DNA of 64,000 nt. It comes from Candidatus Omnitrophota bacterium. GTDB lineage: Bacteria; Omnitrophota; Gorgyraeia; Zapsychrales; JANLHA01. The notes beneath the pieces are model-generated. The model was not told the origin of the DNA. It worked only from the letters and a program-made list of their open reading frames with translations, and made no database searches. The DNA is taken from positions 387,277-451,276 of the forward strand of contig JAKLFA010000001.1 in assembly GCA_022711395.1 (NCBI GenBank), in the 5' to 3' direction. Positions 11,281 to 34,521 of this stretch are shown here, in pieces. Positions within the stretch are counted from its first letter, which is position 1; each line of letters starts with the position of its first letter. Both the position numbers and the translations under genes were made by a program.

Positions 11281-11475
11281 AACCGCTTTATCTTGGGGTG
11301 TTTTTTTTCCTGTCTGCAGTATCTAGTAGAAAATAGTCTAAAATCTTATTGACACACCGTCTATTACTATCTAAATTAAAATTAATTCAAGGCGAAGATG
11401 CGGCAAAGCCGACGTTTTGCTTTCGTTAAGCTTTCAGCAGGCCAAATTAAAACATCTGTGTAAGGAGAAAACGCT

Positions 11476-11733: not shown

Positions 11734-11758
11734 TCCTAACTGAAAAAGGGAGAAGACC

Positions 11759-15061: not shown

Positions 15062-15135
15062 GGTTTGCATTTATTATATAGATACGTTATACTTTTATTA
15101 CCATTTCAAGCTAAATTGCTTCATCAAGGGGCGCC

Positions 15136-17712
15136 ATGAATCGCAAAGCACAGCAAATCGTTGAATATCTCCTGTTGATCGCCAGTGTTATGGTGGTTTT
15201 TTTGGCTGTTTCCGGTCCCAATGGAATGATCCGCTGGAGGGTGGAAGATTCGATCAACCGGACCATTAACCTCATCAAAAAAGGGGATCCCCTTCCTTCA
15301 ACGGCCTATTATTGGGTTAAAGTTAACTGCGATTGTACTGGTCAGAGGGATTGTGTGTATCCTGGGGCGGCTGAGGTCTTTGTGAGCTGCACGTATCGGT
15401 GCATTCAGAATGGAACGGGCGCCAAAGTTGATGATTTTTTCTGTATCGATCTTTTGGGCTATAAACCGAACGCTCTTGGAAGTTGCGGGAATGGGCCATG
15501 CTGCGGTAACGCTAGAGTGGACGCGGCTTATGGTGAGCAATGCGACTCGAGCGCGGGATTTACACAGACGTGTAGCACCAGGCATACTCTCACAGACCCG
15601 GCTCGGAACACATGGTCGGGCAGCGTTCAATGCAACCAGTGCCGGATCATTGACACTTGCGTGGAAGTGGAAAACCCCGCGATCGCTCCTGTCTGCGGTG
15701 ATAACCGTCTGCAGTCGGCTGAGCGGTGCGATATGGTTAACGGCCGGCCGGTCTTTAATCCGGCATACGTGACCAATACGTCATGCATCGGCCGGAATAC
15801 GCCTGTCGCGCCGATCGTCGCTTTTACAGGAGGGTCTTTGGGTTGCAGCAACACCTGCCAAGTTGACGTTAGTAAATGTTACAGGTGCCCCACTTCATGG
15901 ACAGATGTTGGCTGCGGTACCAATGACACAGCATCGCTTCCTAATCCTACAGAGGAGGCACATTGTTTTAAAAACGGGACAAAATATCAGGAGCACACCT
16001 GCCGGTGGGGGACGAATCCCAGTAAGACATTCACGGAAGGGCGCTGTACGGCCGGCCCGGATTGCGGGAACCAGTGTAAGAACCGGGATCCATATTCCAC
16101 GATCTGCCCGCTGACGGTCCCATCAAGTTATACGATCGGTGATCATTGGAACTATGTGGATGCGCCGGCGAATTGCGGCATGAACACTATCTGCCAGGCA
16201 TCCTGTGACGGTGAATTGGTGGCGGTTGATGGCGGAACAGATTGTGATTGTGCGGTCGCGAATACGGTGTATAATGCCGGCACCAAAAAATGTGATTGTC
16301 CTTCCGGTTTTATTCATACCACAGACCGGGACGCGGCGTGTGATGTTTATGGCCCATGGAAAAAACCTGAAGTGGATATTTATACGGCATGGTCATCAGC
16401 GCTTTCTACTGCCAGCTGTTCCAGTTCAGCCATCCCAACGGATACATGTGATTCAAATCAGGTGGATGCATACAATTGTCCGGCTGATACAGCAAAGACC
16501 TGCGCGGATTCAACCTGCGTCTCTCTATATCATTCAAGCGTTTCCTATTACACCAGGACTGTGACCTGCGTGAACCCGCCGCCTACAACCACATATTCAA
16601 AGCGGACGTTAGCTTGCACACGGCCACGGGCTAGTTATATGGTAAATTATTTTAGTTGCGTGGATCCAGCGCCAGAGGCAACATACGCATATGATAATGT
16701 GACTTGCGCGGCTGGTGTTAAAAGCTCTACGGGTGCGGGTTCAAATGTTGTTTCGGGAACATGTGCCGCGAACGTGACAGATACATGTGACGGAGTGAAA
16801 ACAGCGGCGTATACATGCGGCGCTACCGAAACAAAAACATGCGTGGATGTTACAAGCTGTAGTGATGGTTTTGGCCCGGACAATGATACGATCACATCCA
16901 CGGAGGGGCCTTTTGATGTGGTAGGCGGCACGTATACATGTGCGAGTGCGCTGACAGATACCTGCAATGGAAATAAAATGGCGGCTTATGCGTGCGTTTC
17001 TGGTTTTAGAGGGACTTGCACGGATGTTGTCTGCACTGACACAGCTTCCGGGGCGGATACGATCACGGTGAATCCGTCCAATCCTATTACGGTTACGGGA
17101 ACATGCGCTGATAACGCTGAGGCGGATACCACGCCTTCCCCGAACAAATCAGCACAGTATACGTGTCAATTATTAGATGAGGGAACGTATACGGATATTT
17201 ATTCTTGTACGACTACTCCCGCTCCTGAAGGGGAGGGAGATACTTATGTTAACGCTACAGCGCCTGTTGTCTTGACTGGAACCTGTGGGACATGTGTTAA
17301 CGAAGGCTGTTTAAGGAGGCATCCGGAAACTGATGTTTGTCTTGAATACGGTAAATGCGTTGATGAGCCAGTAGGCTGCACACAGGGAACGTGCGGTGAA
17401 ACTCCTTTAACGGATACGTGCAATTCCGATAAGGCCGGCGCCTATACATGCGGTTCGGCAGAGGTAAGGACCTGCACGGATGTGGTTTGTGCGGCGGCGG
17501 CGAATGTGAATTACGCGAAGTATTCCACGCGAAGCATCACATGCAAGGCGCTCGGGGCTGATACATGCAACAATGTTCGTTCAGCTGAATATGATTGCCC
17601 CAATACGGTCCGAAAAACGTGCGTGGATGTTTTAAGCAATCCTCCGACCTTTGAAGGGTATCGCGATGTGACCTGCAGGACCTATAACGGAACATCCTGC
17701 GTTGCGCCATAA
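15136..17712 (+). CDS. Large secreted/surface Cys- and Thr-rich repeat protein with an Flp/Tad-pilin-like N-terminal processing motif.
   Basis: N-terminus MNRKAQQIVEYLLLIASVMVVFLAV matches the Flp 'G/XXXXEY + hydrophobic' class III signal, with Ala at -1. About 100 Cys. At least five ~28-aa modules T-D-T-C-[DN]-x-x-[KQR]-x-[AD]-[AE]-Y-x-C-x5-6-T-C-x-D-[VS]. No recognisable catalytic domain. Confidence 0.6.
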   Translation: MNRKAQQIVEYLLLIASVMVVFLAVSGPNGMIRWRVEDSINRTINLIKKGDPLPSTAYYWVKVNCDCTGQRDCVYPGAAEVFVSCTYRCIQNGTGAKVDDFFCIDLLGYKPNALGSCGNGPCCGNARVDAAYGEQCDSSAGFTQTCSTRHTLTDPARNTWSGSVQCNQCRIIDTCVEVENPAIAPVCGDNRLQSAERCDMVNGRPVFNPAYVTNTSCIGRNTPVAPIVAFTGGSLGCSNTCQVDVSKCYRCPTSWTDVGCGTNDTASLPNPTEEAHCFKNGTKYQEHTCRWGTNPSKTFTEGRCTAGPDCGNQCKNRDPYSTICPLTVPSSYTIGDHWNYVDAPANCGMNTICQASCDGELVAVDGGTDCDCAVANTVYNAGTKKCDCPSGFIHTTDRDAACDVYGPWKKPEVDIYTAWSSALSTASCSSSAIPTDTCDSNQVDAYNCPADTAKTCADSTCVSLYHSSVSYYTRTVTCVNPPPTTTYSKRTLACTRPRASYMVNYFSCVDPAPEATYAYDNVTCAAGVKSSTGAGSNVVSGTCAANVTDTCDGVKTAAYTCGATETKTCVDVTSCSDGFGPDNDTITSTEGPFDVVGGTYTCASALTDTCNGNKMAAYACVSGFRGTCTDVVCTDTASGADTITVNPSNPITVTGTCADNAEADTTPSPNKSAQYTCQLLDEGTYTDIYSCTTTPAPEGEGDTYVNATAPVVLTGTCGTCVNEGCLRRHPETDVCLEYGKCVDEPVGCTQGTCGETPLTDTCNSDKAGAYTCGSAEVRTCTDVVCAAAANVNYAKYSTRSITCKALGADTCNNVRSAEYDCPNTVRKTCVDVLSNPPTFEGYRDVTCRTYNGTSCVAP

Positions 17713-17765
17713 TATATCAGGCGCAAGCGTTTTAAAAAATTTTTAAGACGGTAGAAGGAGACCCA

Positions 17766-18029
17766 ATGGATAAAAAGAGATCAAAGACATTTCCGAAGAT
17801 CCAAAAAGATCTTAAATGCTTCCTGGAAAGTGAAGAAGGAAAGATCGTTGAAAAGGACGCCGTGAAGCTCGGCACTGCGATTGTGGCGGCGGGCGTCTTT
17901 TTGGGCAGCTTAGTGGCTCCTGTGGATGATGCCCATAGCGTGACCACGGGCCATTGTCAGCATGCCTCGCACGGAAGCCACGGAAGCCACGGAAGCCACG
18001 GAAGTCATTCGACCGGGGGCTGGTGTTAG
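17766..18029 (+). CDS. HxsA-like precursor peptide with C-terminal His-Xaa-Ser repeats.
   Basis: 87 aa. Charged N-terminal leader, hydrophobic segment LGTAIVAAGVFLGSLVAPV, then CQHASHGSHGSHGSHGSHSTGGWC. Preceded by a GAAGGAGA Shine-Dalgarno (SD) sequence and followed by four radical SAM genes in the same island. Confidence 0.7.
   Translation: MDKKRSKTFPKIQKDLKCFLESEEGKIVEKDAVKLGTAIVAAGVFLGSLVAPVDDAHSVTTGHCQHASHGSHGSHGSHGSHSTGGWC
17966..18005 (+). repeat. Perfect 9-bp tandem repeat (CACGGAAGC)x4 encoding the His-Gly-Ser repeats.
   Basis: Direct reading: cacggaagc cacggaagc cacggaagc cacggaagc cacggaagtcat. Confidence 0.9.
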
Positions 18030-18148
18030 GTTCTGGCGTATGTCCGCCGGGCCTTCAAATGTTTTATCTTCCAGAGCGACATCTTAGTCTAAGAAAAGAA
18101 TCCATGATCAACCCAATCAAGTCTGTAATGAAATATTCTAAAGATCGG

Positions 18149-18188
18149 AATATGACCGTGGTGCAGTCTACGGTCATATTTTAATTTT
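18149..18188 (+). terminator. Intrinsic terminator/attenuator hairpin between the precursor peptide and the downstream rSAM genes.
   Basis: 10-bp perfect stem ATATGACCGT/ACGGTCATAT with a 10-nt loop, followed by TTTTAATTTT. It sits 12 nt upstream of the rSAM start codon. Confidence 0.6.
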
Positions 18189-18199
18189 AAGGAGCGATC

Positions 18200-19627
18200 A
18201 TGCAGGGCCTGGCATCATCTGAGCAAGAGATGAGATTGAGAAGATTGTTCGCGGATCTTTTGATCAAAAAAGGATACGAAAAAGAGGTCTATCTGCTTGA
18301 CCTGAGCGCCTTTTTTAAGAGCCATGGAGTTTACACCTTATCCGAAGTGCAGGACCTTTGGAGAGGGCATTTGTCCAAAGCGGAAGTCTGCCGGCATTAT
18401 TTTTCTCTTTATGTGCACATCCCGTTCTGCCGGAAGCGATGTTCATTTTGCCGGCATTATGAATGGACCTGCAGCAGTGAGAACCAGCTGCGGCTTTATC
18501 TTGATTCGCTGGTCTTTGAGATCCGGGCGTTCAAAGAGATATTTTCTGGTGTTATGTTCAAAAGCCTTTATGTCGGCGGCGGGACGGCGAACATTTTAAG
18601 CCCGGAGCAGATCGATCGTCTTTTGTCAGAGATCGACCTAAATTTTAGATTTGATGATCACGCGGAGAAGACATTTGAATGCAATCCCAATGAGTCCTCC
18701 ATGGAAAAACTATCTGTTTTCGCGGGCCATGGGATCAACCGTGTTTCGTTCGGGGTGCAGAGCTATTCTCAGGATGTTCTGGGATGCACTCATCGCGCTC
18801 ATCAGAGTGAGGAGATGGTCGCCTCAGCCATCAGGGATGCGCAGAGATTCCCGGCTTTTCATAAGATCAATGCGGATCTGTTGATCGGGCTGCATAATGA
18901 CAGCCCGAAAACGGTGTGTGACAGTTTTCTTAAACTTGCGCAACTTGGCACAGGATCGATCTCGCTTTATGCTCTTAAGCCGCCGCTGCATTATATTAAA
19001 AAATATTATCGAGGACGGCAGGACCTCTATGATGAGGCCCTATCGGAAAAATTAAGGGACTTTGAACGCCTGGTCGCGCCGATCACAGAAGAATTTGATT
19101 ATGTTTTTACGCCCCTAAAGGAAATTAGGGCGAACTTTGACGCATGGATGTTCACCCTGCGAAAGAATTATCATACCGGGCGCATCTATAAATATGTGAC
19201 CGCGGAATTCCCGATCGATTGCCTGGGCCTTGGAACAGGCGCGGTCTCGACGATCACGGATCACGCTTTTTACAAGAACCAGAGCTTTACGCCGTCCGCG
19301 CAGGGCGGGACCTTTGAGCAAAACGGCAGATACCGAGGCTGTTTGAAATATGGGCCTAAAGAGCAAAGAGTGTTGTTCATTCTGGGGGAGATCGCCACAT
19401 GGAACCGTATTTCGAAAACCCAATACCGGGGGATGTTCGGATCAGATATTACGGCTGACTTTACGGTTGAACTCGAGCGGCTTTCAGCATTGGGCGTTGT
19501 GAGCCTGACTGACGCGTTCGTTATTTTTGAGAGGAAGAAGCCGGAGGAGAGGTTCTTTTACGCGCTGTTTTTTTTGGACCATAAGATGATCTTTGATGCA
19601 ATGGAAAAACTAAAAACAAAAGTCTGA
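18200..19627 (+). CDS. HemN-like (class C) radical SAM enzyme.
   Basis: YVHIPFCRKRCSFCRHY (HemN-type CxxxCxxC) and LYVGGGT. It immediately follows the Hxs-type precursor peptide. Confidence 0.75.
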   Translation: MQGLASSEQEMRLRRLFADLLIKKGYEKEVYLLDLSAFFKSHGVYTLSEVQDLWRGHLSKAEVCRHYFSLYVHIPFCRKRCSFCRHYEWTCSSENQLRLYLDSLVFEIRAFKEIFSGVMFKSLYVGGGTANILSPEQIDRLLSEIDLNFRFDDHAEKTFECNPNESSMEKLSVFAGHGINRVSFGVQSYSQDVLGCTHRAHQSEEMVASAIRDAQRFPAFHKINADLLIGLHNDSPKTVCDSFLKLAQLGTGSISLYALKPPLHYIKKYYRGRQDLYDEALSEKLRDFERLVAPITEEFDYVFTPLKEIRANFDAWMFTLRKNYHTGRIYKYVTAEFPIDCLGLGTGAVSTITDHAFYKNQSFTPSAQGGTFEQNGRYRGCLKYGPKEQRVLFILGEIATWNRISKTQYRGMFGSDITADFTVELERLSALGVVSLTDAFVIFERKKPEERFFYALFFLDHKMIFDAMEKLKTKV

Positions 19628-19648
19628 TTTCATAAGCGGACGTTCAAG

Positions 19649-21481
19649 ATGCCAGTCGCAAAATCCAAAAATAATTCTGCGGGCGCGGTCCGAAAAAAGG
19701 ACGCCCCCTATGTCATTTCAGCAGCCTATCATTGTAATAACGCGTGCCTGTTCTGTTATAACAAGGGCGGGCAGAATATCCGTCCTCAATTGAGCTTTGA
19801 TGAGATGCTCCGGCAGATCGAACAAGCCGCCGGGGCAGGGTATAAAAAGGTCGCTTTTTTCGGGGGGGAATGCACGGTCGAGCCGTATTTTTTTGATCTG
19901 CTCAAGGTCGCCAAAAAATTCGGTTTAAAGGCCCGGCTGGAAACCAACGGCCAGATGTTCGCAGAGACGGACTTTTTGAGGCGATTGAAAGAATTCGACC
20001 TGGATTCATGCCAGTTTTCTTTTCATACTTATGAGGAATCGGTGCATGATGAGTTGACGCGCAATCCGGGCGGATTCCGCAAGACCGTCAAGGGCATCCT
20101 GAATTTTAAAAAAGCCTTTCCCCATGTCAGGCTGGACAGTTACACCGTGATCACCCGCCGGAACGTGCGTCAATTGTATAAGACGGCCTGTTATCTTCAC
20201 AAATTCTTTGGCGTGCAGGAGGCGTTCTTTTCGTTTTTGATCTCTCCGGCGGAGAGGGAAAATTTTAAGCGCCTCGCCGTTTCGTTCAATGACGCCCGTC
20301 CCTGTTTGCAAAGGGCGCTGGACTATCTTTCTGGCCATAACCTTCCGTTCCGGATCGATAAATGCCCGAAATGCGTATTTCCCCAGTATCACGAGCTTCA
20401 TCATTATGAAAAAGGGGTCTTTGATCCGGATGATTACTGCAAGCATGCGGTCTGTGAAAGCTGTCCGCTTTCTGCGGATTGCCCGGGATTCAGTAAACAA
20501 TACGTGGCTGTTTTCGGATTTGATGGCCTGCGGCTGGGAGGATTTCAGCAGGATGAGCTGAAATATTTTTTTGCCGGGCTGAATATGGGAGCGTTAAAGA
20601 GCGTGAAACGATCGCTGACCTTTGATGAGTTCAACAATCCAGTGCTGAACTTTGAGAGGGAAGAGGGGGGCTGGGAGCAGATCTGCAAAGATGTCAATAT
20701 CCCATTGTGCGCGATTAAAAGCACAGGAAAGCTGATCGACATCTGGAATGATTTTCAATTTACGCCGGAGTTTGTTGAAAAAGCGCTTCGTCAAAACAGA
20801 ACAGTGTCCTGTGAAGATTTATCCAGGGCTGTGTGTCAGCAGTTGAGGAAAGATTTTAAGGCGAAGGTCAGTGAGGAAAATGTCCTTTTGACCGCCGGTT
20901 CCCGTCCGGCGTTGTATGCCGCGTTCCTTGCGCACATAAGGCCGGGCGACCTGGCCGTTCTTAAAGAGGGCATGTGGGACGGCTATCGCTATGGTCTTGA
21001 TCAGACCGGGGGCCGGGTCGTTGAGGTTTCTTCTTACGATGAACTGGAGAATGTCGGTTCGGATGAGCTGCGGCTGGTGATCGTCAACAACCCTCAGCTG
21101 CCTTCCGTGCGCCAGCGGTTGTCTGAAAAGGAAATCAGGAAGCTCATCTCTTTTTGCAATCAGCGGGGAACGTTTTTGCTCGTCGATGAGATCGGTAACC
21201 GCCTTTCTCCTGACCCGTTTTCGGTCCTTTCGCATTGTGATATGTCTAAAGACCGCGTGATCGTGACCCAGTCATTTTCTAAAAATTATTTTATTCCTCA
21301 ATATAAGGCCGGTTATGCGGTGGCGCATCCTGAGATCATTTCAAAGATCAAACGGATCATTGATTTCAGCGGATATCCGATCGCGCCCCGGTCCGTTCAG
21401 GCAGCGCATGCGGTTCTCTGTTCACCTCAGCAGTGGCAGAAAGAAAAGGCCGCCATGATCTATAAAAAAGGGACGTGGTAA
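19649..21481 (+). CDS. Radical SAM domain fused to a C-terminal PLP-dependent class I/II (HisC-like) aminotransferase-fold domain.
   Basis: N-terminal CNNACLFC (CxxxCxxC) with GGE. The C-terminal ~250 aa align to the aminotransferase fold, including SFSKNYFIPQYKAGYAVA. Compare hisC in this window: [18 protein letters not shown], the pyridoxal-Lys motif. Confidence 0.6.
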   Translation: MPVAKSKNNSAGAVRKKDAPYVISAAYHCNNACLFCYNKGGQNIRPQLSFDEMLRQIEQAAGAGYKKVAFFGGECTVEPYFFDLLKVAKKFGLKARLETNGQMFAETDFLRRLKEFDLDSCQFSFHTYEESVHDELTRNPGGFRKTVKGILNFKKAFPHVRLDSYTVITRRNVRQLYKTACYLHKFFGVQEAFFSFLISPAERENFKRLAVSFNDARPCLQRALDYLSGHNLPFRIDKCPKCVFPQYHELHHYEKGVFDPDDYCKHAVCESCPLSADCPGFSKQYVAVFGFDGLRLGGFQQDELKYFFAGLNMGALKSVKRSLTFDEFNNPVLNFEREEGGWEQICKDVNIPLCAIKSTGKLIDIWNDFQFTPEFVEKALRQNRTVSCEDLSRAVCQQLRKDFKAKVSEENVLLTAGSRPALYAAFLAHIRPGDLAVLKEGMWDGYRYGLDQTGGRVVEVSSYDELENVGSDELRLVIVNNPQLPSVRQRLSEKEIRKLISFCNQRGTFLLVDEIGNRLSPDPFSVLSHCDMSKDRVIVTQSFSKNYFIPQYKAGYAVAHPEIISKIKRIIDFSGYPIAPRSVQAAHAVLCSPQQWQKEKAAMIYKKGTW

Positions 21482-21498
21482 AGAGGGCTTTTATGTCT

Positions 21499-23097: not shown

Positions 23098-23121
23098 TTG
23101 AAGATCCTTCGTCCTATTATT

Positions 23122-26691: not shown

Positions 26692-26896
26692 GGGCGATCT
26701 CGAGATAGAGGACATAGTTTTTGAACTCACTGATAAAGATTTCTGCGTCGTCCAATTGTCCGTCGTCATCAACGGAGACATGGAAATACTGCCCCTTTGA
26801 GCGGATCTCAAACTTGCCGAAATCCTTGAATTGTTCAAAGGCGGCTTCAATGTGCGCTTGTGAGTATAAATTTTTATGAAAAGGGATTGTCAGCAT
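26678..26896 (-). CDS. Small hypothetical protein (72 aa) immediately upstream of the SPASM rSAM pair; possible accessory protein or second substrate.
   Basis: Tight spacing: 2 nt after the upstream gene and a 14-nt overlap with the downstream rSAM. I have no family assignment. Confidence 0.4.
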   Translation of the reverse strand: MLTIPFHKNLYSQAHIEAAFEQFKDFGKFEIRSKGQYFHVSVDDDGQLDDAEIFISEFKNYVLYLEIAHAQP

Positions 26897-26897
26897 T

Positions 26898-27401
26898 TTA
26901 CTGCAAAGGTCTTTTTATGTTCAACGGATCTTCTTCGTAGGTTCCCGCAGAAAAATCTTCCTGCTCCAGTTCTTTCTTGAGAGCTTCGATCTCCTGTTCG
27001 ATCTTTTTGATGTCATCCTCATCACTGTTGGCGCGTGAAGGTTCTTGCGGCCCTTTGGATGAGGAGGGAAGGGCGGCGTTAATGGCCCCTCCAACGATAT
27101 ATTCAATGATCGTTTTATTTTTTTGGGCGATCTCTTTGCGGACGGATGCATTGAGAAGTTCATTCAAGAATTCATTGCGGAGCGCTTCGAGCTGCTTTTT
27201 GGTTGATCGTGTCTTTGTTTTCAACAAGACGGTGAACTCATCTTTTTTCGGGGCGTCGATATAAACATAGACTTTGTCTACGATGATGTAGCAAGCCTTT
27301 AAAAGGACCTCTTTGGGATAGATTTTAGGATGAACGGAGAAGACAATCTCTGAATCCTTCGTGTTAATCCGTGTTTTGCTGGATTTTTCGAAATTATTCA
27401 T
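26898..27401 (-). CDS. Hypothetical protein (167 aa) with an acidic coiled-coil C-terminus; HxsD-like candidate.
   Basis: First gene of the minus-strand rSAM operon. Contains …FLNELLNASVRKE…, loosely reminiscent of the LLNDYxLRE motif I recall for HxsD. This similarity is weak. Confidence 0.4.
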   Translation of the reverse strand: MNNFEKSSKTRINTKDSEIVFSVHPKIYPKEVLLKACYIIVDKVYVYIDAPKKDEFTVLLKTKTRSTKKQLEALRNEFLNELLNASVRKEIAQKNKTIIEYIVGGAINAALPSSSKGPQEPSRANSDEDDIKKIEQEIEALKKELEQEDFSAGTYEEDPLNIKRPLQ

Positions 27402-27538
27402 TTTTCGCTCGTATATTGTGGGATTGATAGAGAACTAAAAGAATCTAGGTAAAGTATAACAGGAATGACTGTTTTCGCAAATATTTTATTCCGTTTCTTG
27501 CGCCGGGCAGCGTCTAGCCCCGGCCTCGTTGCTGCCTT

Positions 27539-28303
27539 TTAAGGACCGGCATGGATGTTGGGAAGGATGCGCAGGAGTTCTTCTTTGGGCATGTCATATT
27601 TCAAGAGGGCGTCACTTCGTAATCCGGCCAGAGCAGTGTAGTAGGCGTCATAACCGAGACTGAACGCGGTGTAGGCCAAGAGGCTGGAATAGTCATAATA
27701 TGTGAAATAGATCAGGATCTTTTTGTTCTTATCGAATTTCCGCAAGGCTTTTTCCATTTCCTGGGGGTTCATATAAAATTTTTTTGCTGAAGGGGAATCG
27801 TCATTCAAAAGGCGGATAGGATAAAAATCGTCGATCCCCAGGACCTGGAACGATCCGTAGGTTTGCGGGTCGATCGTGTTCAGGTCAACGTAACGCTGCG
27901 CCTTGAATTCCTGATAGGGTAGGGAAACGCCCGGGGAGGCGATCAGCTCGCCGCAGTAATCGACATCGCAGGATGCTTCATGGCAGCATTTGTAGGATAG
28001 ATACGTTTTGAAACGGATATCATAATATTTCAAACTGATGAAAGCTGCCAGGAAGAGCGTGAAGATCGCAGCCCAGAAACGGAGGCGCTGCTGGGAGGCT
28101 TTGTTTTTTATGAGCTTCAGGAAGGAGATGGTCCCGGCGCAGAAGACGACCAGGATATAGATCAGTCCCATGCCCATGGCTGACGCGATCACCTGGATGG
28201 TATGAGGGGAAATAAAGGCAAAAGCGTCCGTTGAAAGACAGAGAATGATACAGAAGGACAAAAGGGTTTTAAAGGATCTTGATCTCGACATGTTTGGCGT
28301 CAC
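27539..28303 (-). CDS. Membrane protein with 3 N-terminal TM helices and a Cys-containing C-terminal domain.
   Basis: Hydrophobic N-terminus followed by …CCHEASCDVDYC…. Family unknown. Confidence 0.4.
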   Translation of the reverse strand: MTPNMSRSRSFKTLLSFCIILCLSTDAFAFISPHTIQVIASAMGMGLIYILVVFCAGTISFLKLIKNKASQQRLRFWAAIFTLFLAAFISLKYYDIRFKTYLSYKCCHEASCDVDYCGELIASPGVSLPYQEFKAQRYVDLNTIDPQTYGSFQVLGIDDFYPIRLLNDDSPSAKKFYMNPQEMEKALRKFDKNKKILIYFTYYDYSSLLAYTAFSLGYDAYYTALAGLRSDALLKYDMPKEELLRILPNIHAGP

Positions 28304-28592
28304 CTGTTATGGCCAGTTTTCCACGCGGGGGGACCGGCCCCAGCGTTTGGTTCAAACGTATGATCGTTTTGCCGTATTCCAGCGCGATCAACGCCAGATG
28401 CGCCAGGGGAGAGCCCTGTTCGGTAATGATCAGTTTGACCTTGTGCAAGATGATCGAAAAATCCGGGTCCAATGAGCGGACGATCACGCAGGGGCTGCCG
28501 GCGAATTCTGAAATATTTCCCATTGTCTGATAGTCGATCATGTCCTCAGCGGTGAAATGACCGGTGATCGTTATTCCTTTTAATGTCATCAT
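28269..28592 (-). CDS. Stand-alone PEP-utilizing-enzyme mobile (phosphohistidine swivel) domain protein.
   Basis: …ITEQGSPLAHLALIALEYGKTII… matches the PEP-utilizer swivel-domain consensus around the catalytic His. Only ~107 aa, with no flanking ATP-grasp or PEP-binding domains. Confidence 0.55.
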   Translation of the reverse strand: MMTLKGITITGHFTAEDMIDYQTMGNISEFAGSPCVIVRSLDPDFSIILHKVKLIITEQGSPLAHLALIALEYGKTIIRLNQTLGPVPPRGKLAITGDAKHVEIKIL

Positions 28593-29310
28593 AGCTCATC
28601 TCAAATATATTTTGAATGTTTTTTTCTGCGGCTAGCTCAAGAAAAGAAAAACGCAGGTCGCGGATGACCAGGAGCGAAAGATATTTCAGCTCTTCCCGCA
28701 ATGACGAATAGGCCGCGAACAGGTTCTTGCTTTTAGAGTCGATAAAATCATAAAGAGAGGTCGCTTTCTGCGTTTTGAAGTCACTGAGGAACCTGGCGAT
28801 CTCAAGGAGCTCCTGCTCCGGGTATTCGCTGAAACGTCTGGCGGAAAGTTCATAGGCGTTGAAGGCGTAATGGCCGAAGCTTTCATTGAATGATTGACGG
28901 GTGATCTCCCCGTGGAACAGGCGCTTGAACGCAAGAAGTCTCTCATCCTCTTTCGTGATGATGGGGTTGGTTTTATGTTTTTCGGCAAAGAAGGCGTATA
29001 TCAAGAACGTGTTGTTGAGCGCGATAAAATCGAACAGGACGGTCAGCCGCTCCCAGGCGCGGTCGATCCTTTGGATGGTGTCCCTTTCAGCGGGGAGAGC
29101 GCGGTCATATCCGCGGGTGAAGGCGTGGATCCTCAGATACTCCTCCTGATACCGGAGCCGCAGCTTGACCTGGTTAAAGAAACCCCGGGGCGGGAAGAGG
29201 GAATCGTATTTCTGCTTTTGGGATATGGCCAGCTCCACAACGCTCCGGGAAAGAGGGCTGGGATCTTTAATAAAATCTTCGAAGATGTTGTTTTGCTCGT
29301 ATTGTCCCAT
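28546..29310 (-). CDS. Hypothetical protein. The start is uncertain (ATG 29310, or 29472 per the ORF track).
   Basis: Helical, charged protein. The ATG at 29310 avoids a 90-nt overlap with the upstream gene. Its 3' end overlaps the swivel-domain ORF by 47 nt in another frame. Confidence 0.35.
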   Translation of the reverse strand: MGQYEQNNIFEDFIKDPSPLSRSVVELAISQKQKYDSLFPPRGFFNQVKLRLRYQEEYLRIHAFTRGYDRALPAERDTIQRIDRAWERLTVLFDFIALNNTFLIYAFFAEKHKTNPIITKEDERLLAFKRLFHGEITRQSFNESFGHYAFNAYELSARRFSEYPEQELLEIARFLSDFKTQKATSLYDFIDSKSKNLFAAYSSLREELKYLSLLVIRDLRFSFLELAAEKNIQNIFEMSYDDIKRNNDHRSFHR

Positions 29311-29381
29311 GCGTATTAGAAGAAGGCTTTTTATCCCGTATTTTATGCCGGCCGTGGAGGGCTTGATCTTTTTTTTGGTCT

Positions 29382-30329
29382 TTAAGGAGAAGGGGTGATA
29401 TTGGTTCTCGGTGGAGCGTTGCCCTTCTGCTGTTTGACGAACTCCCTTGCCTGATAGACCAGTTCCCGGCATTTGTTGAAGTCGACCTCATGAAAATCCC
29501 TGATCTTGTAACAGTAGGACACGGGGTCATCCGGGCCATTGGGGTCAAGGGTCCCAACGACAGCCAAGGGGATCGCGTATGCCTTATAGCACTGATTTTC
29601 AGTGTAATGGCGGATGATCTTTTTTTCAACACTGCTTGGATCGACCAAAGTTTCGCACTGGAGGCGCAGCATGTCATCCCGGATGCTGATCTTGCTGCAC
29701 TCATTGATATCTTTTGTTTTGAACGCCCGGTAAAGCGTGAAGCCTTCCACGCAGTATTTTCGCCCGTCAGACCCTTCTTCAAAATTGTCCAGGCAGGCAT
29801 TGATCCCGGCCGGTGTCGTGACGGCCAGGCAGATCGAATAGGAAACCCGTTTATCTTCCTCGGTGCTGTCATCGAAGATTTGGTTTTTCAGGAACGAATC
29901 GCAGAGAGAAGGGTCCTTGTAAAAGATCACGTGGGCCATGCGGACGCTTTTTGACCTTAAGTTCAGTTTTTGGGCGTCCTCAAGGAATTTTTGGAGGTCT
30001 TTTTCCGTCTTAAGGTGGAACATGATCGATTGCAGACAAAGACGCTTAATATCATCACTCCATGTTTTGTTGTCACAGGTGCCGGTCTTGGCTTGATGGA
30101 GGATCACTTGATATTCCTGGTCCTGGTAGGAGTTGCCGAATTTGGGCAGTTGGCCGCGCGTGGCCAAAGATGTGCACTCATCAATATAGCTTTGGGATTT
30201 TTTCTGAACGTCAGAGAACTTCTGCCCTTTGAAATTATCCAGGGTCATGTCCAGGACGGTCTGAGCATGGATCGTTTGGGAAACAAGGGTAAGAAGCGCG
30301 CTGATCAAAAAGATTCGGAGGGTCTTCAT
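29382..30329 (-). CDS. Secreted Cys-containing protein (signal peptide MKTLRIFLISALLTLVSQTIHAQ), function unknown.
   Basis: Clear Sec signal peptide and about 12 Cys. It is divergent from the tandem rSAM operon. Confidence 0.5.
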   Translation of the reverse strand: MKTLRIFLISALLTLVSQTIHAQTVLDMTLDNFKGQKFSDVQKKSQSYIDECTSLATRGQLPKFGNSYQDQEYQVILHQAKTGTCDNKTWSDDIKRLCLQSIMFHLKTEKDLQKFLEDAQKLNLRSKSVRMAHVIFYKDPSLCDSFLKNQIFDDSTEEDKRVSYSICLAVTTPAGINACLDNFEEGSDGRKYCVEGFTLYRAFKTKDINECSKISIRDDMLRLQCETLVDPSSVEKKIIRHYTENQCYKAYAIPLAVVGTLDPNGPDDPVSYCYKIRDFHEVDFNKCRELVYQAREFVKQQKGNAPPRTNITPSP

Positions 30330-30576
30330 TCTTTTTCCGATCGGTTAAGTGGTAGTAGACATGACAGTATCACATCCAATGCATAGGTATTATATGTGTG
30401 TCAAAATTTGAGGTCAAGACTTAAAGTGACAGATCCTGATCCAAAGTATCTGGGGCATGCTTTAGATCAAGAAAAACCATTGCAAGTCCATTCTAAAGGC
30501 ATTATATTTACTATAAGTCTGAATAATGAAAAAGGCCCTCTTTAAGTCGAGAAAAGAGTTTTTTCCCTAAAAGCCG

Positions 30577-31473
30577 ATGAAAAAAGCGGATATCAAAACC
30601 GGGTTTTTATGCAATTCCAACTGCCGTTTCTGCGTTCAGGGTGACCTCAAAAAGGCCCTTGGCAATAAATCGGCTGCTGAGCTTAAAGAGATCATCAAGG
30701 AGGCCAGCCGCGACTGCGGGATCCTGGTCTTTACCGGAGGGGAAGTGTGCGTGCGGGAGGATATTCTTGAGCTTGTCGCGTATGCCCGGCAATTCCCTTT
30801 TCACACAATACAGATCCAATCCAACGGCCGTGTGTTTATGGACGAGCGTTTTTGCGCGGACGTGATCTCCGCCGGGGCCAATGAGTTCGCCCTGGCGCTT
30901 CACGGCCATACGCCGGAACTTCATGATTATCTGACCCAAAGCGCCGGCTTTAAACAGACGATCCGCGGCATTCGGAATTTAAAAAAACTCGGCCAGCGTG
31001 TTCTTGTGAACACGGTGGTGACCAAACCAAATTACCGCCACCTGCCGGATATTACAAAATTGCTGATCAGCCTGGATGTTGACCAGATGCAGCTGGCCTT
31101 TGTGCACGCGCTGGGTTCGGCCGCATTGAATTTTGAAAGCATGGTCCCGCGACTGACGCTGGTGATGCCCTATGTCATCCGAAGTATCGTGATCGCCCGT
31201 CATTTTGACAGGCAGATCGTCACGGAGGCTATTCCGTATTGTTTTCTTAAAGGTTATGAAGGGCATGTTTCCGAGCAGGTCATGCCTATCATGAAGATCT
31301 TTGAACATGATCATGTTGTGGCCAACTTCACGGAATCCAGGTTGACCGAGGGCAAGCTGAAAGGCCCGGATTGTCCGCAATGCGCTTATTACGAGGCATG
31401 TGAAGGATCGTGGAAAGAATATCCCCAAGCCTTCGGATGGGATGAATTCGTGCCGGTGAGCAGGGAACGATGA
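30577..31473 (+). CDS. Radical SAM protein (small, ~300 aa), first of three tandem paralogs.
   Basis: CNSNCRFC at residues 12–19, GGE motif (FTGGEV), C-terminal CPQCAYYEACEG. Confidence 0.75.
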   Translation: MKKADIKTGFLCNSNCRFCVQGDLKKALGNKSAAELKEIIKEASRDCGILVFTGGEVCVREDILELVAYARQFPFHTIQIQSNGRVFMDERFCADVISAGANEFALALHGHTPELHDYLTQSAGFKQTIRGIRNLKKLGQRVLVNTVVTKPNYRHLPDITKLLISLDVDQMQLAFVHALGSAALNFESMVPRLTLVMPYVIRSIVIARHFDRQIVTEAIPYCFLKGYEGHVSEQVMPIMKIFEHDHVVANFTESRLTEGKLKGPDCPQCAYYEACEGSWKEYPQAFGWDEFVPVSRER

Positions 31474-32606
31474 GCGCAAATAAGGTCCAAATTAAAAATA
31501 AGGCGGCTGAGGAGAAACGTCATTGGGTGCGTTTGACGAATACCTGCAACCAGCGGTGCGTGTTCTGCCACGATCGTCGGAATCAGCAGGGAGGGGTCGT
31601 GCCGTTTGAGGAGATTGTCCGCGATCTTCAAAAAGGGCGCAGGCGGGGTTGCCGGCGGGTGGTGCTGTCAGGAGGTGAACCGACGCTGCATCCTGAATTG
31701 GCCAGGGTCATTTCCGAGGCCAGGCGCCTGGGGTATTCACATGTGCAGATGGTGAGCAATGGGCGGATGCTCTTTTATAAGGATTTTGTAAAGGCCTTGA
31801 AGACGGCTGGTTTGGATGAAGTGACCCTTTCATTGCATAGTCATTTGGAGGGGCCGTTCGAGCAGATCACGCGAGCAAAGGGCAGTTTCCGTCAGGCGAT
31901 GAAGGGGCTGCTTGCCGTTCTTGAGAACGATTTTATTGTGAGCGTGGATATTGTCATTAATAAGCTGAATTACAAGAGCCTCGCACGGACCATGAAATTC
32001 TTTATCGGGTTAGGGGTCTATGAGTTCGATCTTTTGCATTTGATCCCGTTCGGGGATGCCTGGCAGAACAGGAGGGACGTTTATTACCCTATCCAAAAAG
32101 CGAAAAAATATCTGGATGAGGCTTTCGAACTTTCCAGGAAAGAACAGGTCTATCTTTGGACCAACCGTCTGCCGGCGATGTACCTCGAGGGTTATGAAGA
32201 CTTGATCCAGAGTCCGCGTAAACTTTTTGATGAAGTGGCGGGGATGGAGCAGGAACTTAAGAACGTTTTGGAGACGGGGCGCCCGATGATCTGTTCGGGA
32301 GAACGATGCGGATATTGTTTTATGGAGGCCTTTTGTCAGGATCTGATGCGATTACGAAAGGATAAGTTTCTTTCTGCCAGACAGCCGCCGCCATGTTTAA
32401 AAAAGAAACAGCAGTTGAAGCCGGCCGTTTACCGCTTTCGAAAGGGCATGAGCCTTTACCGGTTCCTGGATTTTTTTATTGAACATCGGTATTATGTGAA
32501 AAGCCTGCGGTGCGGGCAGTGTCGCTTCAACCGTCAGTGCGACGGAGCGCACATCGAGGAAATACGGACAAAGGGTTTTAAGGCCCTGGTCCCGTTTAAA
32601 AAATAA
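31470..32606 (+). CDS. Radical SAM protein with a SPASM/twitch-like C-terminus, second tandem paralog.
   Basis: CNQRCVFC; LSGGEPTL; C-terminal CSGERCGYCFMEAFC and CGQCRFNRQCDG. Its start overlaps the previous stop (ATGA). Confidence 0.75.
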   Translation: MSANKVQIKNKAAEEKRHWVRLTNTCNQRCVFCHDRRNQQGGVVPFEEIVRDLQKGRRRGCRRVVLSGGEPTLHPELARVISEARRLGYSHVQMVSNGRMLFYKDFVKALKTAGLDEVTLSLHSHLEGPFEQITRAKGSFRQAMKGLLAVLENDFIVSVDIVINKLNYKSLARTMKFFIGLGVYEFDLLHLIPFGDAWQNRRDVYYPIQKAKKYLDEAFELSRKEQVYLWTNRLPAMYLEGYEDLIQSPRKLFDEVAGMEQELKNVLETGRPMICSGERCGYCFMEAFCQDLMRLRKDKFLSARQPPPCLKKKQQLKPAVYRFRKGMSLYRFLDFFIEHRYYVKSLRCGQCRFNRQCDGAHIEEIRTKGFKALVPFKK

Positions 32607-32611
32607 GAGCA

Positions 32612-33547
32612 ATGGCGAGCCTAGGCTATATACAAGTCACCCGCGAGTGCAATCAGAATTGTATGATCTGTTCTAATCCTCCGACGGGTTATTATTTGCC
32701 GCTTGACCAGGCCAAGAAGGAAGCGGACTGGCTGGTCGAAAAGCGGTGCGCAGGTGTTATTTTAAGCGGCGGGGAGCCTACGTTGTATCCGCAACTTCCG
32801 GAATTGATCCGATATTGCAAAGCCCGGGGGCTGTTTCCACGGATCATCACCAACGGGCAGAAGACCTGTGATGAACAGTATCTTCGCCTTTTAAAAGAAT
32901 CCGGTCTGCAGCATTTGCATCTGTCGATCTATTCTTGCCGGCCCGCGGTTCAGGCGAAGCTCACCGGCAACGCGCAGGCCTTTGCCAACATTGAAAAAAG
33001 CCTTATGAATATCGTGCGGCTTGGCGGAATGACCGTGGATGTCAATATCGTGATCAATAAATATAATGCCGGTCATTTGTTGGAGACGGTTTCGTGGATG
33101 ATTGAACATTATGGTTTTGTTCAACATTGTGTTTTCAACAATCTGGATCCGTGCATGAACCGCGTGGCGGAGCATCCGGATGTGGTCCCGCGGCTCAATG
33201 ATTTTGAGCTGGAGCTTCACCGGGCGTTGCAGTTCTTGGCTGCTCATGGAAAAACATTCCGTGTTGAGCGTGTCCCGCTGTGCTATTTGACGGATTTCGA
33301 GCACATTTCCACGGAAACGCGCAAGATCGTCCTGAATGAACAGAGAGCGATCTATTTTTTGGATGACCGGGGAGAGGTGGAGCAGGAAGATTGGTATTAT
33401 AAAAAAGGGGCTGCTTGTAGGCCCTGCAGGCTGAATAAGATCTGCGCCGGGCTGTATGCCCTGGGAAAAGGATATGATGAAGGGGAGTTGTATCCGGTTT
33501 TTATTGATCCTGCCGGGATCATTGAGAAGATCAAAGGAATTCCATGA
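32612..33547 (+). CDS. Radical SAM protein, third tandem paralog.
   Basis: CNQNCMIC; LSGGEPTL; C-terminal CRPCRLNKICAG. Confidence 0.75.
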   Translation: MASLGYIQVTRECNQNCMICSNPPTGYYLPLDQAKKEADWLVEKRCAGVILSGGEPTLYPQLPELIRYCKARGLFPRIITNGQKTCDEQYLRLLKESGLQHLHLSIYSCRPAVQAKLTGNAQAFANIEKSLMNIVRLGGMTVDVNIVINKYNAGHLLETVSWMIEHYGFVQHCVFNNLDPCMNRVAEHPDVVPRLNDFELELHRALQFLAAHGKTFRVERVPLCYLTDFEHISTETRKIVLNEQRAIYFLDDRGEVEQEDWYYKKGAACRPCRLNKICAGLYALGKGYDEGELYPVFIDPAGIIEKIKGIP

Positions 33548-34521
33548 TATTCAATAACCTTTTGCTTGCTATGCTTTTTGGGTTCAGTTTGTATATTGCA
33601 GATCAGGATATGCGGACAAAACGCATCTCGAACCGGGTGATCGCAAGGGCGCTTTTGGCGGGGGTGTTGGTGTATGGAGCGGGCCTTATAGCTGGCGCGA
33701 TGAGCGTGACGTATGTTCTTCAAGCAGGGCTGAACACGCTTACGGCTTTTGCCGCTGGATTCCTGATCTGGAAACTGAACTTATGGCCTGCCGGGGACGC
33801 GAAATTTTTCATGGCCTGTTCCTTTTTGATCCCTTTACAGTATTATTCAAAGCAGTTTTTCTATTTTCCGGCGTTTAGTTTTTTGATGAACATGTTCTTG
33901 ATCTATTTGGTTTTTATGGGGTATAAATTTGCGATCTGGGCAGGTCAAAACATCGTTGCATTTTTCAAAAGCCGGGTGTTTTTAAGAAAGGGTTTTTTGC
34001 GATTTCTGAAGATGAGATGCAAACGATCCCTGGCCGTTCTCGGAACTGCGGGATTTTGGAAGAAACTGGCTTACCGGGTCATGTTCAAGGCTGTTTTTCA
34101 GGTGTCGCTGATCGCCGTGGCGTTCGTGTTTTTTACAAAGCGGAGTTTTCAGTTCCAGGCGTTCTCAGTGTTTTTTTTGTTCTTTCTGGGAGTGCGGATG
34201 GTATTCAGTGCTTTTGTTAAGACCTCAGGACGCCGGATGATCAAGGCGGAAACCCTTCAACCCGGCATGAATCTCTCGATAGATACGATCAAGCGGGTGA
34301 AATGCGATCGTGAATTCTTCAAGGGGATCGGGGCCTTGAGGGCTGATGGGCTTACTGTTCAGCAGGCAGAGGCCCTTAAAGAATATTTGTTGCGGAAAAA
34401 TTTTCTTGATATCTATATTTATGACACGATCGCGTTCTCACCATTCATCGCCTTGGGGGCTGCGGCAACGGTCCTGGCGAACGGCTCTGTGCTGGATTTG
34501 GGCCCGCAGATCATGATGTAA
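33544..34521 (+). CDS. A24-family prepilin peptidase-like membrane aspartyl protease (TadV/CpaA type) with a C-terminal extension.
   Basis: DQDMRTKRISNRV (CpaA-like D…R.I[PS]N motif) and WPAGDAKFF (GxGD second catalytic Asp), both embedded in TM helices. It overlaps the last rSAM stop (ATGA). Confidence 0.55.
   Translation: MIFNNLLLAMLFGFSLYIADQDMRTKRISNRVIARALLAGVLVYGAGLIAGAMSVTYVLQAGLNTLTAFAAGFLIWKLNLWPAGDAKFFMACSFLIPLQYYSKQFFYFPAFSFLMNMFLIYLVFMGYKFAIWAGQNIVAFFKSRVFLRKGFLRFLKMRCKRSLAVLGTAGFWKKLAYRVMFKAVFQVSLIAVAFVFFTKRSFQFQAFSVFFLFFLGVRMVFSAFVKTSGRRMIKAETLQPGMNLSIDTIKRVKCDREFFKGIGALRADGLTVQQAEALKEYLLRKNFLDIYIYDTIAFSPFIALGAAATVLANGSVLDLGPQIMM

Follow-up and report, generated by a model that had tools for sequence, protein, structure and literature searches.

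A radical SAM gene block between smc and a GGDEF gene

The window analysed here is a stretch of 64,000 nucleotides on contig JAKLFA010000001.1 of an uncultivated Omnitrophota bacterium. Its positions 15136–34521 hold a block of ~19 kb that probably encodes an expanded Hxs-type system, in which a small peptide would be matured by radical S-adenosylmethionine (SAM) enzymes. The ends of the block are exact and correspond to the start of its first gene and the stop of its last. A gene map was compiled from the listing of open reading frames (ORFs), Pfam and NCBIfam matches and stored gene calls. It contains 18 genes, labelled W01 to W18, located between smc (11759–15061) and a gene for a GAF-GGDEF protein (34537–35718), which is followed by genes for CvpA, DnaG and RpoD. 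Sub-operon 1 (W01, W02, W03 and W04; 15.1–21.5 kb) is on the plus strand. The minus strand (21.5–30.3 kb) carries, in the order of transcription, W14-W13-W12-W11 and then W10-W09-W08-W07-W06-W05. Sub-operon 4 (W15, W16, W17 and W18; 30.6–34.5 kb) is again on the plus strand.

An original prediction for this DNA had described the same strand layout (plus at 15.1–21.5, minus at 21.5–30.3 and plus at 30.6–34.5 kb) and the same housekeeping flanks, smc on the left and GAF-GGDEF, CvpA, DnaG and RpoD on the right, and both descriptions held. The seven radical SAM enzymes that it counted (genes at 18200–19627, 19649–21481, 24057–25208, 25192–26691, 30577–31473, 31470–32606 and 32612–33547) all match PF04055 above cut-off and all have a CxxxCxxC motif; six of them also contain, C-terminally, CxxCx5C, a motif that is typical of auxiliary clusters. 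The expected swivel-domain protein was found at 28269–28592 (PF00391, 28.8 bits with a cut-off of 23.1), as were two Cys-rich proteins, one of 858 amino acids with 75 Cys and one of 315 amino acids with 12 Cys. Both are probably secreted, since their N-terminal sequences are signal-like. Two membrane glycosyltransferases of the GT-C class had been proposed. Only one such protein, W05 (PMT_2), is encoded; the second large membrane protein, W18, belongs to Peptidase_A24. Two short genes had been overlooked, one for an 87-residue precursor with HxS repeats (17766–18029) and one for a 72-residue HxsD-like protein (26678–26896).

The Hxs core and its precursor

The W08 protein (25192–26691, minus strand) is an HxsB radical SAM/SPASM maturase (TIGR03978, 494.3 bits with a cut-off of 370). 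W10 (26898–27401, minus strand) is HxsD (TIGR03976, 56.7 bits with a cut-off of 50; PF27806 in the precomputed annotation), and W09 (26678–26896, minus strand) is a 72-residue HxsD-like small protein (NF038315 HxsD_rel, 63.4 bits with a cut-off of 41). A small gene of the latter kind, hereafter d, is found between hxsD and hxsB in many related loci. With HxsB, HxsD and HxsD_rel above curated cut-offs and a precursor with HxS repeats, the proposal of an elaborated Hxs-type system is borne out.

The precursor is W02 (17766–18029, plus strand), an HxsA3-like protein of 87 amino acids with the sequence MDKKRSKTFPKIQKDLKCFLESEEGKIVEKDAVKLGTAIVAAGVFLGSLVAPVDDAHSVTTGHCQHASHGSHGSHGSHGSHSTGGWC. Its conserved leader (KDLKxFLxSEEGK) is followed by a hydrophobic segment and then by a Cys-bracketed core that ends with GGWC. 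The core contains five tandem HxS repeats, one HAS followed by four HGS. The match to the HxsA3 model NF038309 extends over the full length and is a near miss (50.5 bits with a cut-off of 65). The score with HxsA4 (NF038313) is also below cut-off (35.3 bits compared to 55), and so is that with canonical HxsA (TIGR03979; 22.6 bits compared to 121.65): W02 has five HxS repeats and an export segment, yet is only 87 amino acids long, and the peptidoglycan-binding domain of canonical HxsA is absent from it.

A search with W02 revealed 132 related protein clusters of 73–153 amino acids, and the named members of the family are from Omnitrophota and Elusimicrobia. Judging by their sequences, about 130 clusters of putative related precursors exist, mostly in these two phyla. 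All listed members have in common the K(K/D)LKxFLxSEEGK motif in the leader, a hydrophobic segment that often ends in an AxA-like site, HxS repeats and a C-terminal aromatic residue. In aligned precursors this residue, Trp or Tyr, is found at or next to the C-terminus (GGWC, GQW, GSY), and in the precursor alignment A5 residues F19, L20, E24 and four histidines are invariant. Two relatives, P0032 and P0079, pass the HxsA4 cut-off, share the FLxSEEGK leader and the repeats with W02, and are located in the same type of cluster with multiple radical SAM genes.

Between W02 and W03 there is a terminator-like hairpin (18149–18189, plus strand) with 13-bp arms at 18149–18161 and 18168–18180, followed by TTTAATTTT, a T-rich run 3′ of the arms. 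The minimum free energy of the region 18020–18205 is −51.8 kcal/mol (z = −3.07). The hairpin may serve as an attenuator and thereby determine how much precursor is made relative to enzyme. A 76-residue ORF at 17954–18184 was rejected as a gene: it results from reading the HGS repeats in a different frame (PRKPRKPRK) and has no family match.

The other radical SAM enzymes

Downstream of hxsB lies W07 (24057–25208, minus strand), a radical SAM/SPASM peptide maturase (PF04055) that is PapB-like. Its score with PapB (NF047865), 154.6 bits with a cut-off of 340, makes it a related SPASM maturase and not a member of this ranthipeptide maturase family. Thioether-forming PapB is the closest family, and the protein is 44% identical to the product of a gene located between hxsB and the precursor gene in a related locus, L009.

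Three enzymes encoded by sub-operon 4 on the plus strand, all with PF04055, resemble HxsC. W15 (30577–31473) is HxsC/HxsC4-like (HxsC4, 150.9 bits with a cut-off of 500; HxsC, 100.5 bits with a cut-off of 267.9), and its homologues are 73% identical in locus L007 and 62% in L009. The HxsC-like enzymes of L009, L010 and L011 are likewise below the HxsC4 (NF038332) cut-off. W16 (31470–32606) is HxsC/MoaA-like, with two C-terminal CxxCx5C motifs; its homologues are 63% identical in L007 and score 459 bits in L033. For the HxsC-like W17 (32612–33547), the corresponding figures are 68% and 407 bits.

In sub-operon 1, W03 (18200–19627, plus strand) is a HemN-like (class C type) radical SAM protein of 475 amino acids with PF04055 and a CRKRCSFC motif. 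Its best NCBIfam matches, HemN, HemW and ChuW/HutW, range from 123 to 141 bits, all below cut-off. Homologues are present in L007 (two copies), L009, L017, L033, L039 and L040. W04 (19649–21481, plus strand) is a fusion of an N-terminal HxsC-like radical SAM domain (PF04055, 73 bits; HxsC, 90.9 bits with a cut-off of 267.9) with a pyridoxal phosphate (PLP) aminotransferase fold (PF00155, 65.5 bits), which may, from its sequence, act differently from a simple transaminase. This fold retains the PLP lysine motif, SFSK, at residue 542. Since the match stops at position 270 of the 361-position Aminotran_1_2 profile, the fold lacks its C-terminal part. Fusions of this type are very rare, with four full-length clusters among 5.8 billion proteins. 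The best named relatives of the PLP domain include the cyclising PLP enzymes GntC and VioD.

A lipid-modifying role of the radical SAM enzymes was considered because of weak matches to tetraether synthase Tes and was rejected, as these ranked below HxsC, HxsC4, MoaA and several others.

An ABBA-fold protein and the link to prenylation

The W06 protein (23122–24045, minus strand; 307 amino acids) has homologues in six clusters only, the named ones from Omnitrophota. When its sequence was compared with the PDB, only weak, non-significant matches were obtained (E ≥ 0.03), nearly all of them to antibody heavy chains. Since PDB sequence searches gave no significant match for W06 or for W13 (see below), structure prediction was needed for both. 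An AlphaFold2 model of W06, built from homologue sequences, has a predicted local distance difference test score (pLDDT) of 77 and a predicted template modelling (TM) score of 0.77. It contains five alpha-alpha-beta-beta units, and the predicted order of secondary structure elements fits a 10-strand ABBA prenyltransferase (PT) barrel. In a Foldseek search of the PDB, 50 of the 50 top matches were aromatic or peptide prenyltransferases (TM score 0.45–0.64, probability 0.96–1.0), IptA, CymD, NphB/Orf2, CloQ, EpzP, AmbP1 and PatF among them. Residues K135, Y137, K190, Y192, K250, W252, R254, Y305 and R307 are invariant and fall on predicted strands. The modelled fold makes W06 a candidate peptide prenyltransferase; it was classed by fold only, because no membership of a prenyltransferase family could be detected at the sequence level.

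Related clusters contain prenyltransferases that are recognisable by sequence. In L009 and L033, the DUF5838 proteins match peptide prenyltransferases of solved structure from the LynF/TruF/PatF family (LimF, PagF and PirF included) with E values of 1e-31 to 1e-7. L033 encodes, in addition, a polyprenyl synthetase (PF00348, 187 bits). These two independent findings, PatF-family proteins in L009 and L033 and a polyprenyl synthase in L033, support a prenylation step in this class of clusters. LimF is known to geranylate histidine; the histidines of the repeats are thus candidate prenyl acceptors, beside the C-terminal Trp/Tyr. In the literature we found no description of PatF-type prenyltransferases associated with Hxs-type radical SAM systems, and nothing specific on Omnitrophota radical SAM clusters or on links between prenyltransferases and radical SAM enzymes.

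The glycosyltransferase, the A24 peptidase and the Cys-rich protein W01

The single GT-C protein, W05 (21499–23091, minus strand), is a PMT_2/ArnT-like membrane glycosyltransferase (PF13231, 30.7 bits with a cut-off of 26.1). An acidic motif, DEPWY, is found at residue 75 in the first extracytoplasmic loop. An orthologue with 49% identity is encoded within the single operon of L007.

W18 (33544–34521, plus strand) is a membrane protein of the Peptidase_A24 (prepilin/preflagellin peptidase) family (PF01478, 33.5 bits with a cut-off of 26.5) with a C-terminal extension of ~190 amino acids. Its Asp motifs, D20/D22 in DQDMRTKRISN and D85 in AGDAK, suggest a catalytic role for these residues; the protein is a candidate leader peptidase. 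Homologues of A24 end the runs of radical SAM genes in L007, L010, L011, L012 and L033, and this arrangement was seen in six independent long loci.

W01 (15136–17712, plus strand) is the Thr/Cys-rich protein of 858 amino acids with 75 Cys; it has no Pfam or NCBIfam match. Five repeats, approximately DTC(D/N)xxKxAAYxC...TCxDV, were recognised. The N-terminus, MNRKA↓QQIVEYLLLIASVMVV (MNRKA↓QQIVEY...), fits the Flp/class-III prepilin pattern G/A↓xxxxEY, and W01 is a possible substrate of W18. In both L005 and L006, smc is followed by an orthologue of W01. L009 encodes, divergently to hxsD, an unrelated Cys-rich protein that has this N-terminal motif too, and no other locus has one. Membership of W01 in the pathway is moderately supported. 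Since A24 homologues are far more widespread in these clusters than Flp-type proteins, the peptidase may have the HxS precursor, W01 or both as substrate.

Conservation of the block in relatives

The layout of the block is the same in L005, whose proteins are ~90% identical, and the left part is the same in L006 (61–88% identity). In L007 (40–73% identity), a partial W07-like SPASM gene, a GT-C gene, three W15-like genes, the radical SAM/aminotransferase fusion, W16, W17, A24 and two HemN-like genes are arranged on one strand with short gaps. L009, L010 and L011 are long contigs with precursor homologues. Their clusters start with D-(d)-B-(SPASM or secreted Cys-rich protein)-A, where D, B and A stand for hxsD, hxsB and the precursor gene, and six to nine more radical SAM genes follow downstream of A; an A24-like membrane protein is also encoded in L010 and L011. 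A metagenome scan seeded with the precursor alignment yielded 36 loci. In these and in L009–L011, the order D-(d)-B-...-A was observed almost everywhere where upstream sequence exists, with variable radical SAM runs after it. One of the loci, L033, is fully co-linear and reads D-B-B-A-secreted Cys protein-SPASM-PatF(DUF5838)-HemN-C15-C15-C16-C17-A24-polyprenyl synthase.

Genes of three of the four sub-operons are thus repeatedly found together, in several genomes and metagenome contigs that are independent of each other, which is more than expected by chance. Because genes of sub-operons 1, 2 (21.5–27.4 kb) and 4 are co-directional together in L007 and L033, we treat these sub-operons as one recurrent system. 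The lineage of the window is unusual only in having moved the precursor and two enzymes into a convergent operon. The claim that the whole block makes one pathway is accordingly upheld for the genes of these three sub-operons and not for the sub-operon at 27.5–30.3 kb. Scattering of sub-operons over related genomes, which had been named as evidence against a single pathway, was seen in part: the W14-W11 module occurs without Hxs genes in distant organisms (L050 and L051).

In a more distant Omnitrophota genome (GCA_026387335.1; L012/L013), smc and the GAF-GGDEF gene are directly adjacent, and radical SAM genes together with W07-like, W06-like, W15-like and A24 genes are located just upstream of smc, at ~8000–19000. 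The neighbourhood is therefore kept and the insertion point is not. That cluster also contains genes for GT2, a MiaB-like radical SAM protein, a U32 peptidase and Asn synthase.

Several further observations were made in the related loci. HxsB of L033 is encoded by two consecutive ORFs of 266 and 197 amino acids (8528–9986), which could reflect a frameshift, a sequencing error or a genuinely split gene. The region 13174–18898 of L009 encodes a B12-binding radical SAM enzyme and also an ATP pyrophosphatase of the diphthamide-synthase-like type (Diphthami_syn_2). The latter deserves attention because the substrate is His-rich and diphthamide is itself a histidine derivative. Secreted Cys-containing proteins with the N-terminal motif T(I/M)TTYYP(S/A)PxGxYxxL are encoded just upstream of hxsD in several clusters (L010, 6074–6715; L011, 4365–5075 and 6535–6972; L016).

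By composition, the block does not stand out as an island, as had been proposed from its gene content together with a check for GC and codon usage shift. GC content is 0.496 in the block and 0.509 in the flanks, and GC content at third codon positions (GC3) is 0.590 and 0.605, respectively. Correlation of 4-mer frequencies between block and flanks is 0.93–0.95, compared to 0.95–0.965 between the flanks. The codon-frequency distance of the block is 0.124, compared to a null value of 0.073 ± 0.011, a figure not separated from the unusual amino-acid composition of the proteins. Since GC, GC3 and 4-mer content are like those of the flanks, a horizontal-transfer signature was rejected.

The sub-operon at 27.5–30.3 kb

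Four genes on the minus strand, W14-W13-W12-W11, encode a different set of proteins. W12 (28269–28592), the swivel-domain protein, is a stand-alone phosphoenolpyruvate (PEP)-utilizer phosphohistidine domain with its His retained in GSPLAHLAL. Translation starts at 28592 or 28541, and there are weak matches to the swivel region of PEP synthase and of rifampin phosphotransferase. W13 (28546–29310; 254 amino acids) is, according to a confident structure model (pLDDT 92.9), all-helical and like the substrate-binding domain of rifampin phosphotransferase, and would be the partner of W12. Its sequence has no match in the PDB when used alone and one non-significant match when used as a profile. Among 1.84 billion proteins, W13 has 67 representatives, nearly all stand-alone and of ~250 amino acids. 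The membrane protein W11 (27539–28303) has three hydrophobic segments and, C-terminally, a rhodanese-like domain from which the usual Cys is missing; the sole PDB match is a rhodanese (E = 0.46). Its GTG start at 28303 is supported by conservation of the motif AF(I/L)SPxT. W14 (29382–30329; 315 amino acids, 12 Cys) has a signal-like N-terminus and may be analogous to the secreted Cys-rich proteins encoded next to the precursor in other clusters. Homology to that family was considered and rejected (E ~0.01, hhalign probability 6%), and the resemblance was left as analogy.

The W13-W12 pair recurs in L050 and L051, where W11 homologues adjoin the relatives of W13 and W12. In L050 (7043–11755), two genes for membrane proteins like W11 and one for a secreted Cys-rich protein come after the pair. 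In L051 (618–2731), the W13-W12-W11-type module adjoins genes for an STT3 oligosaccharyltransferase and a protein of 7272 amino acids. No Hxs genes are present in either locus, and some relatives of the W13 module are annotated as Nanoarchaeota or as "archaeon". The only link of the module to Hxs is the Cys-rich protein of L050, which is related to the secreted Cys-rich proteins flanking Hxs precursors (E = 1e-7 to L030). An ATP-grasp (PPDK_N) partner was not matched by any protein of the block and was not seen with the module in relatives. The sub-operon recurs with the rest of the block in a close relative only. Because the module is found without Hxs genes in L050 and L051, its membership in the system is uncertain, and it is probably a separate accessory module.

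Other features of the block and the window

A σ70-like promoter, TTGACC-17-TATAAT, is located at 30389–30417 on the minus strand upstream of W14; it matches the consensus at 11 of 12 positions and is the best in the region. A second σ70-like match, with an extended TG, is found upstream of W10. Both are putative promoters by consensus match only. No convincing additional precursor-like small ORFs were present in the gaps at 27.4–27.5 kb and 30.3–30.6 kb. A scan of a genome collection with HxsB as single query and exact peptide patterns gave one irrelevant match with 25% identity. Elsewhere in the window, at 53808–56435, a protein of 875 amino acids is encoded that combines a GH2-type TIM barrel with dockerin type I and IPT/TIG domains; a dockerin is unusual for an Omnitrophota genome.

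Proposed pathway and alternative explanations

In our view the block is fairly likely to be a lineage-specific, strongly expanded Hxs-type maturation system of this Omnitrophota bacterium. Family assignments, the W06 fold and gene co-linearity in relatives are the basis on which we infer what its substrate is, in which order the steps occur, and what chemistry and biological role it has, as follows. The substrate would be the 87-residue W02 with its FLxSEEGK leader, hydrophobic export segment and core of ~30 residues containing five HxS repeats and the GGWC end. In the cytoplasm, HxsB would act with HxsD and the small HxsD-like protein. Six more radical SAM enzymes (a PapB-like SPASM enzyme, four HxsC-like enzymes, one of them PLP-fused, and a HemN-like enzyme) would join, and the set would install several radical modifications on the core, which is rich in His, Ser, Cys and Trp. 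W06 would prenylate the peptide, the acceptor probably being a His or the aromatic residue conserved at the C-terminus. The hydrophobic segment would carry the peptide into the membrane, and W18 or a signal peptidase would cut off the leader. W05 may then glycosylate the product, or W01, on the membrane's outer face. The end product would be an envelope-associated, cross-linked and probably lipidated His-rich peptide, which could serve as an envelope barrier like Escherichia coli HXS, in metal binding or as an interaction factor. The exported and heavily modified peptide foreseen in the original prediction is thus also the product in the reading that we prefer; glycosylation is possible, since one GT-C protein is present.

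Several observations weigh against this scheme. The precursor gene is located 7 kb from hxsD and hxsB and on the opposite strand, unlike in almost all relatives. No protein of the block reaches the HxsC cut-off (TIGR03977, 267.9 bits); the best scores are those of W15 (100.5), W16 (96.4), W04 (90.9) and W17 (86.9). W06 gave no sequence-level match to prenyltransferase families (TIGR04445/PF19156, DMATS, NphB/CloQ) in Pfam or NCBIfam. In hhalign, its family aligned with the DUF5838 protein of L009 over a 20-column motif only, on which ground membership in the PatF family was rejected; with a 309-residue protein of L009 hhalign gave nothing. No polyprenyl synthase is encoded within the window, and W06 and GT-C are limited to a few Omnitrophota lineages. 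No HxS ORF was found within 10 kb of the cluster with radical SAM genes and a W06 homologue in L012/L013. Finally, W02 lacks a textbook prepilin cleavage site, which makes the role of the A24 peptidase on W02 a conjecture.

Among the alternatives, one concerns the role of the product and is compatible with an expanded maturation system. HXS is a four-gene anti-phage system that in E. coli blocks phage DNA entry (PMC13128918), and by analogy an HxS peptide in the envelope might do the same here. HxsB, HxsD and HxS repeats are indeed shared with this experimentally shown defence system (PMC13128918), and the peptide has an export segment. However, W02 lacks the peptidoglycan-binding domain, mutations in which abolished defence in E. 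coli (PMC13128918), and its repeats are HGS and not rich in basic residues. PADLOC gave only generic viperin-type radical SAM matches in the block and no defence-system assignment, there is neither a composition shift nor a neighbouring defence gene, and the position beside smc is conserved in related genomes. We consider a role in defence rather doubtful.

A second alternative is that the block is a mosaic of neighbouring independent systems: a minimal Hxs core (D, d, B, A), an unrelated pathway of the radical SAM/cofactor or lipid type, a pilin-like adhesin along with the peptidase and glycosyltransferase that serve it, and a module for phosphotransfer. The occurrence of the W14-W13-W12-W11 module without Hxs genes in L050 and L051, with W13 relatives annotated as archaeal, and of W06, W07, W15 and A24 homologues in L012 without a nearby HxS ORF is in line with this possibility, as are the many short D-B-A loci that show no extra enzymes. 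Most of the short loci, however, are contigs that simply end. C15-C16-C17-A24, HemN-like and SPASM genes are found in single, tightly spaced co-directional operons of L033 and L007 that also hold the fusion and GT-C (L007) or D-B-A and PatF (L033), and the pattern is repeated in L009, L010 and L011. A mosaic is therefore unlikely.

We regard as improbable the remaining alternative, according to which the main substrates would be Cys-rich secreted W01 and perhaps W14, with radical SAM enzymes installing thioether or other cross-links in Cys/Thr/Asp-rich repeats, A24 cutting the Flp-type leader of W01 and GT-C glycosylating it to give a cross-linked pilus-like or surface protein: the exact A↓xxxxEY motif and five Cys-rich repeats of W01, the presence of both A24 and GT-C enzymes, the similarity of W07 to thioether-forming PapB and CcpM above all, the second Flp-leader Cys-rich protein next to hxsD in L009 and the secreted Cys-rich proteins flanking the precursor in many clusters would fit, but among the loci such Flp-leader proteins occur in two lineages only while A24 with radical SAM runs is far wider, W01 has no recognisable leader for radical SAM recognition, and it is the HxS peptide that universally accompanies HxsB and HxsD as their conserved partner.

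Returning to the expanded Hxs-type system, a broader proposition can be advanced tentatively, as possible and short of probable: the Omnitrophota and Elusimicrobia clusters may make a new class of ribosomal peptides, with an HxS core multiply modified by radical SAM enzymes, a prenyl anchor, an A24 leader peptidase, envelope display and possibly GT-C glycosylation. If so, A24 peptidases would have a new job, PatF/ABBA prenylation would for the first time be linked to Hxs chemistry, and a natural series of variants would be available for working out the action of HxsB/HxsC-type enzymes on His and Ser. The family, with its short, soluble-looking substrates (75–130 amino acids), common HxsB/HxsD core and graded extra enzymes, could ease study of this chemistry. 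Should the product be an envelope-anchored lipopeptide, it would bear on surface building or defence in very small, possibly host-dependent bacteria.

Comparison with known systems

The HxsD-HxsB-HxsC-HxsA system was described by Haft & Basu 2011 (PMC3133131) and Li et al. 2026 (PMC13128918). In the latter work, 99.7% of the surveyed systems were from Pseudomonadota and 99.6% had the gene order D-B-C-A. HxsB, HxsC and HxsD were needed for the processing of the N-terminus of HxsA, a protein of ~214 amino acids with a peptidoglycan-binding domain, for a +8 Da change in its SHRSS motif and for its periplasmic export. For the E. coli system, no more than the +8 Da change could be reported, and the reaction could not be reconstituted (PMC13128918). 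Like HXS, the block encodes true HxsB and HxsD and a substrate in which an export signal is combined with five HxS repeats in tandem, and its radical SAM enzymes would be expected to modify the repeat region ahead of export. Unlike HXS, it has no HxsC equivalog and is found in Omnitrophota. The PapB-like W07 occupies the HxsC position, five more radical SAM enzymes are present, and an ABBA-fold protein, a GT-C protein, an A24 peptidase and an extra HxsD-like protein are added. On the minus strand its genes run D-d-B-SPASM-ABBA-GT-C, and A lies on the plus strand at a distance of 7 kb, so that the substrate gene does not adjoin D-B; the substrate itself is 87 amino acids long and has no peptidoglycan-binding domain.

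A closer counterpart is the variant represented in NCBIfam by NF038309, NF038313, NF038315 and NF038332. W09 is a member of HxsD_rel and W02 matches HxsA3 over its full length; the scores of W02 with HxsA3 (50.5 compared to 65) and of W15 with HxsC4 (150.9 compared to 500) set the block apart. Literature searches found no papers on clusters, chemistry or function of HxsA3, HxsA4, HxsD_rel or HxsC4. The system had been called undescribed, which is right as far as papers on the variant are concerned and is not right for NCBIfam, where HxsA3, HxsA4, HxsD_rel and HxsC4 are already modelled.

Individual parts resemble other systems. The W18 protein is like the Tad/Flp prepilin peptidases (TadV/CpaA, FlaK) in matching the A24 profile and having both Asp motifs, and W01 has a Flp-type N-terminus. 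In contrast to Tad/Flp, there are no pilus assembly genes in the block, W18 has its ~190-residue extension, and A24 is found at the end of radical SAM runs in several clusters without any Flp-type protein. W12 and W13 differ from rifampin phosphotransferase and PEP synthase in being split into small genes with no ATP-grasp found, and in occurring together with a rhodanese-like membrane protein and a Cys-rich secreted one. W06 has the ABBA PT-barrel fold in common with LynF/TruF/PatF proteins (PagF, PirF, LimF) of cyanobactin and other ribosomally produced, post-translationally modified peptide (RiPP) pathways, real members of which are carried by the sister clusters L009 and L033, and differs from them in having no detectable sequence membership.

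We conclude that the block is a multi-enzyme elaboration of the Hxs system and not categorically new, some parts of it being already named in NCBIfam. It extends Hxs-type systems from Pseudomonadota to Omnitrophota and Elusimicrobia and connects them with the prenylation of peptides, possibly also with glycosylation and with processing of the prepilin type. The main new points are the prenyltransferase link, the recurrent A24 peptidase, the co-linear relatives by which three sub-operons are tied to one another and the evidence for the fourth as an independent module.

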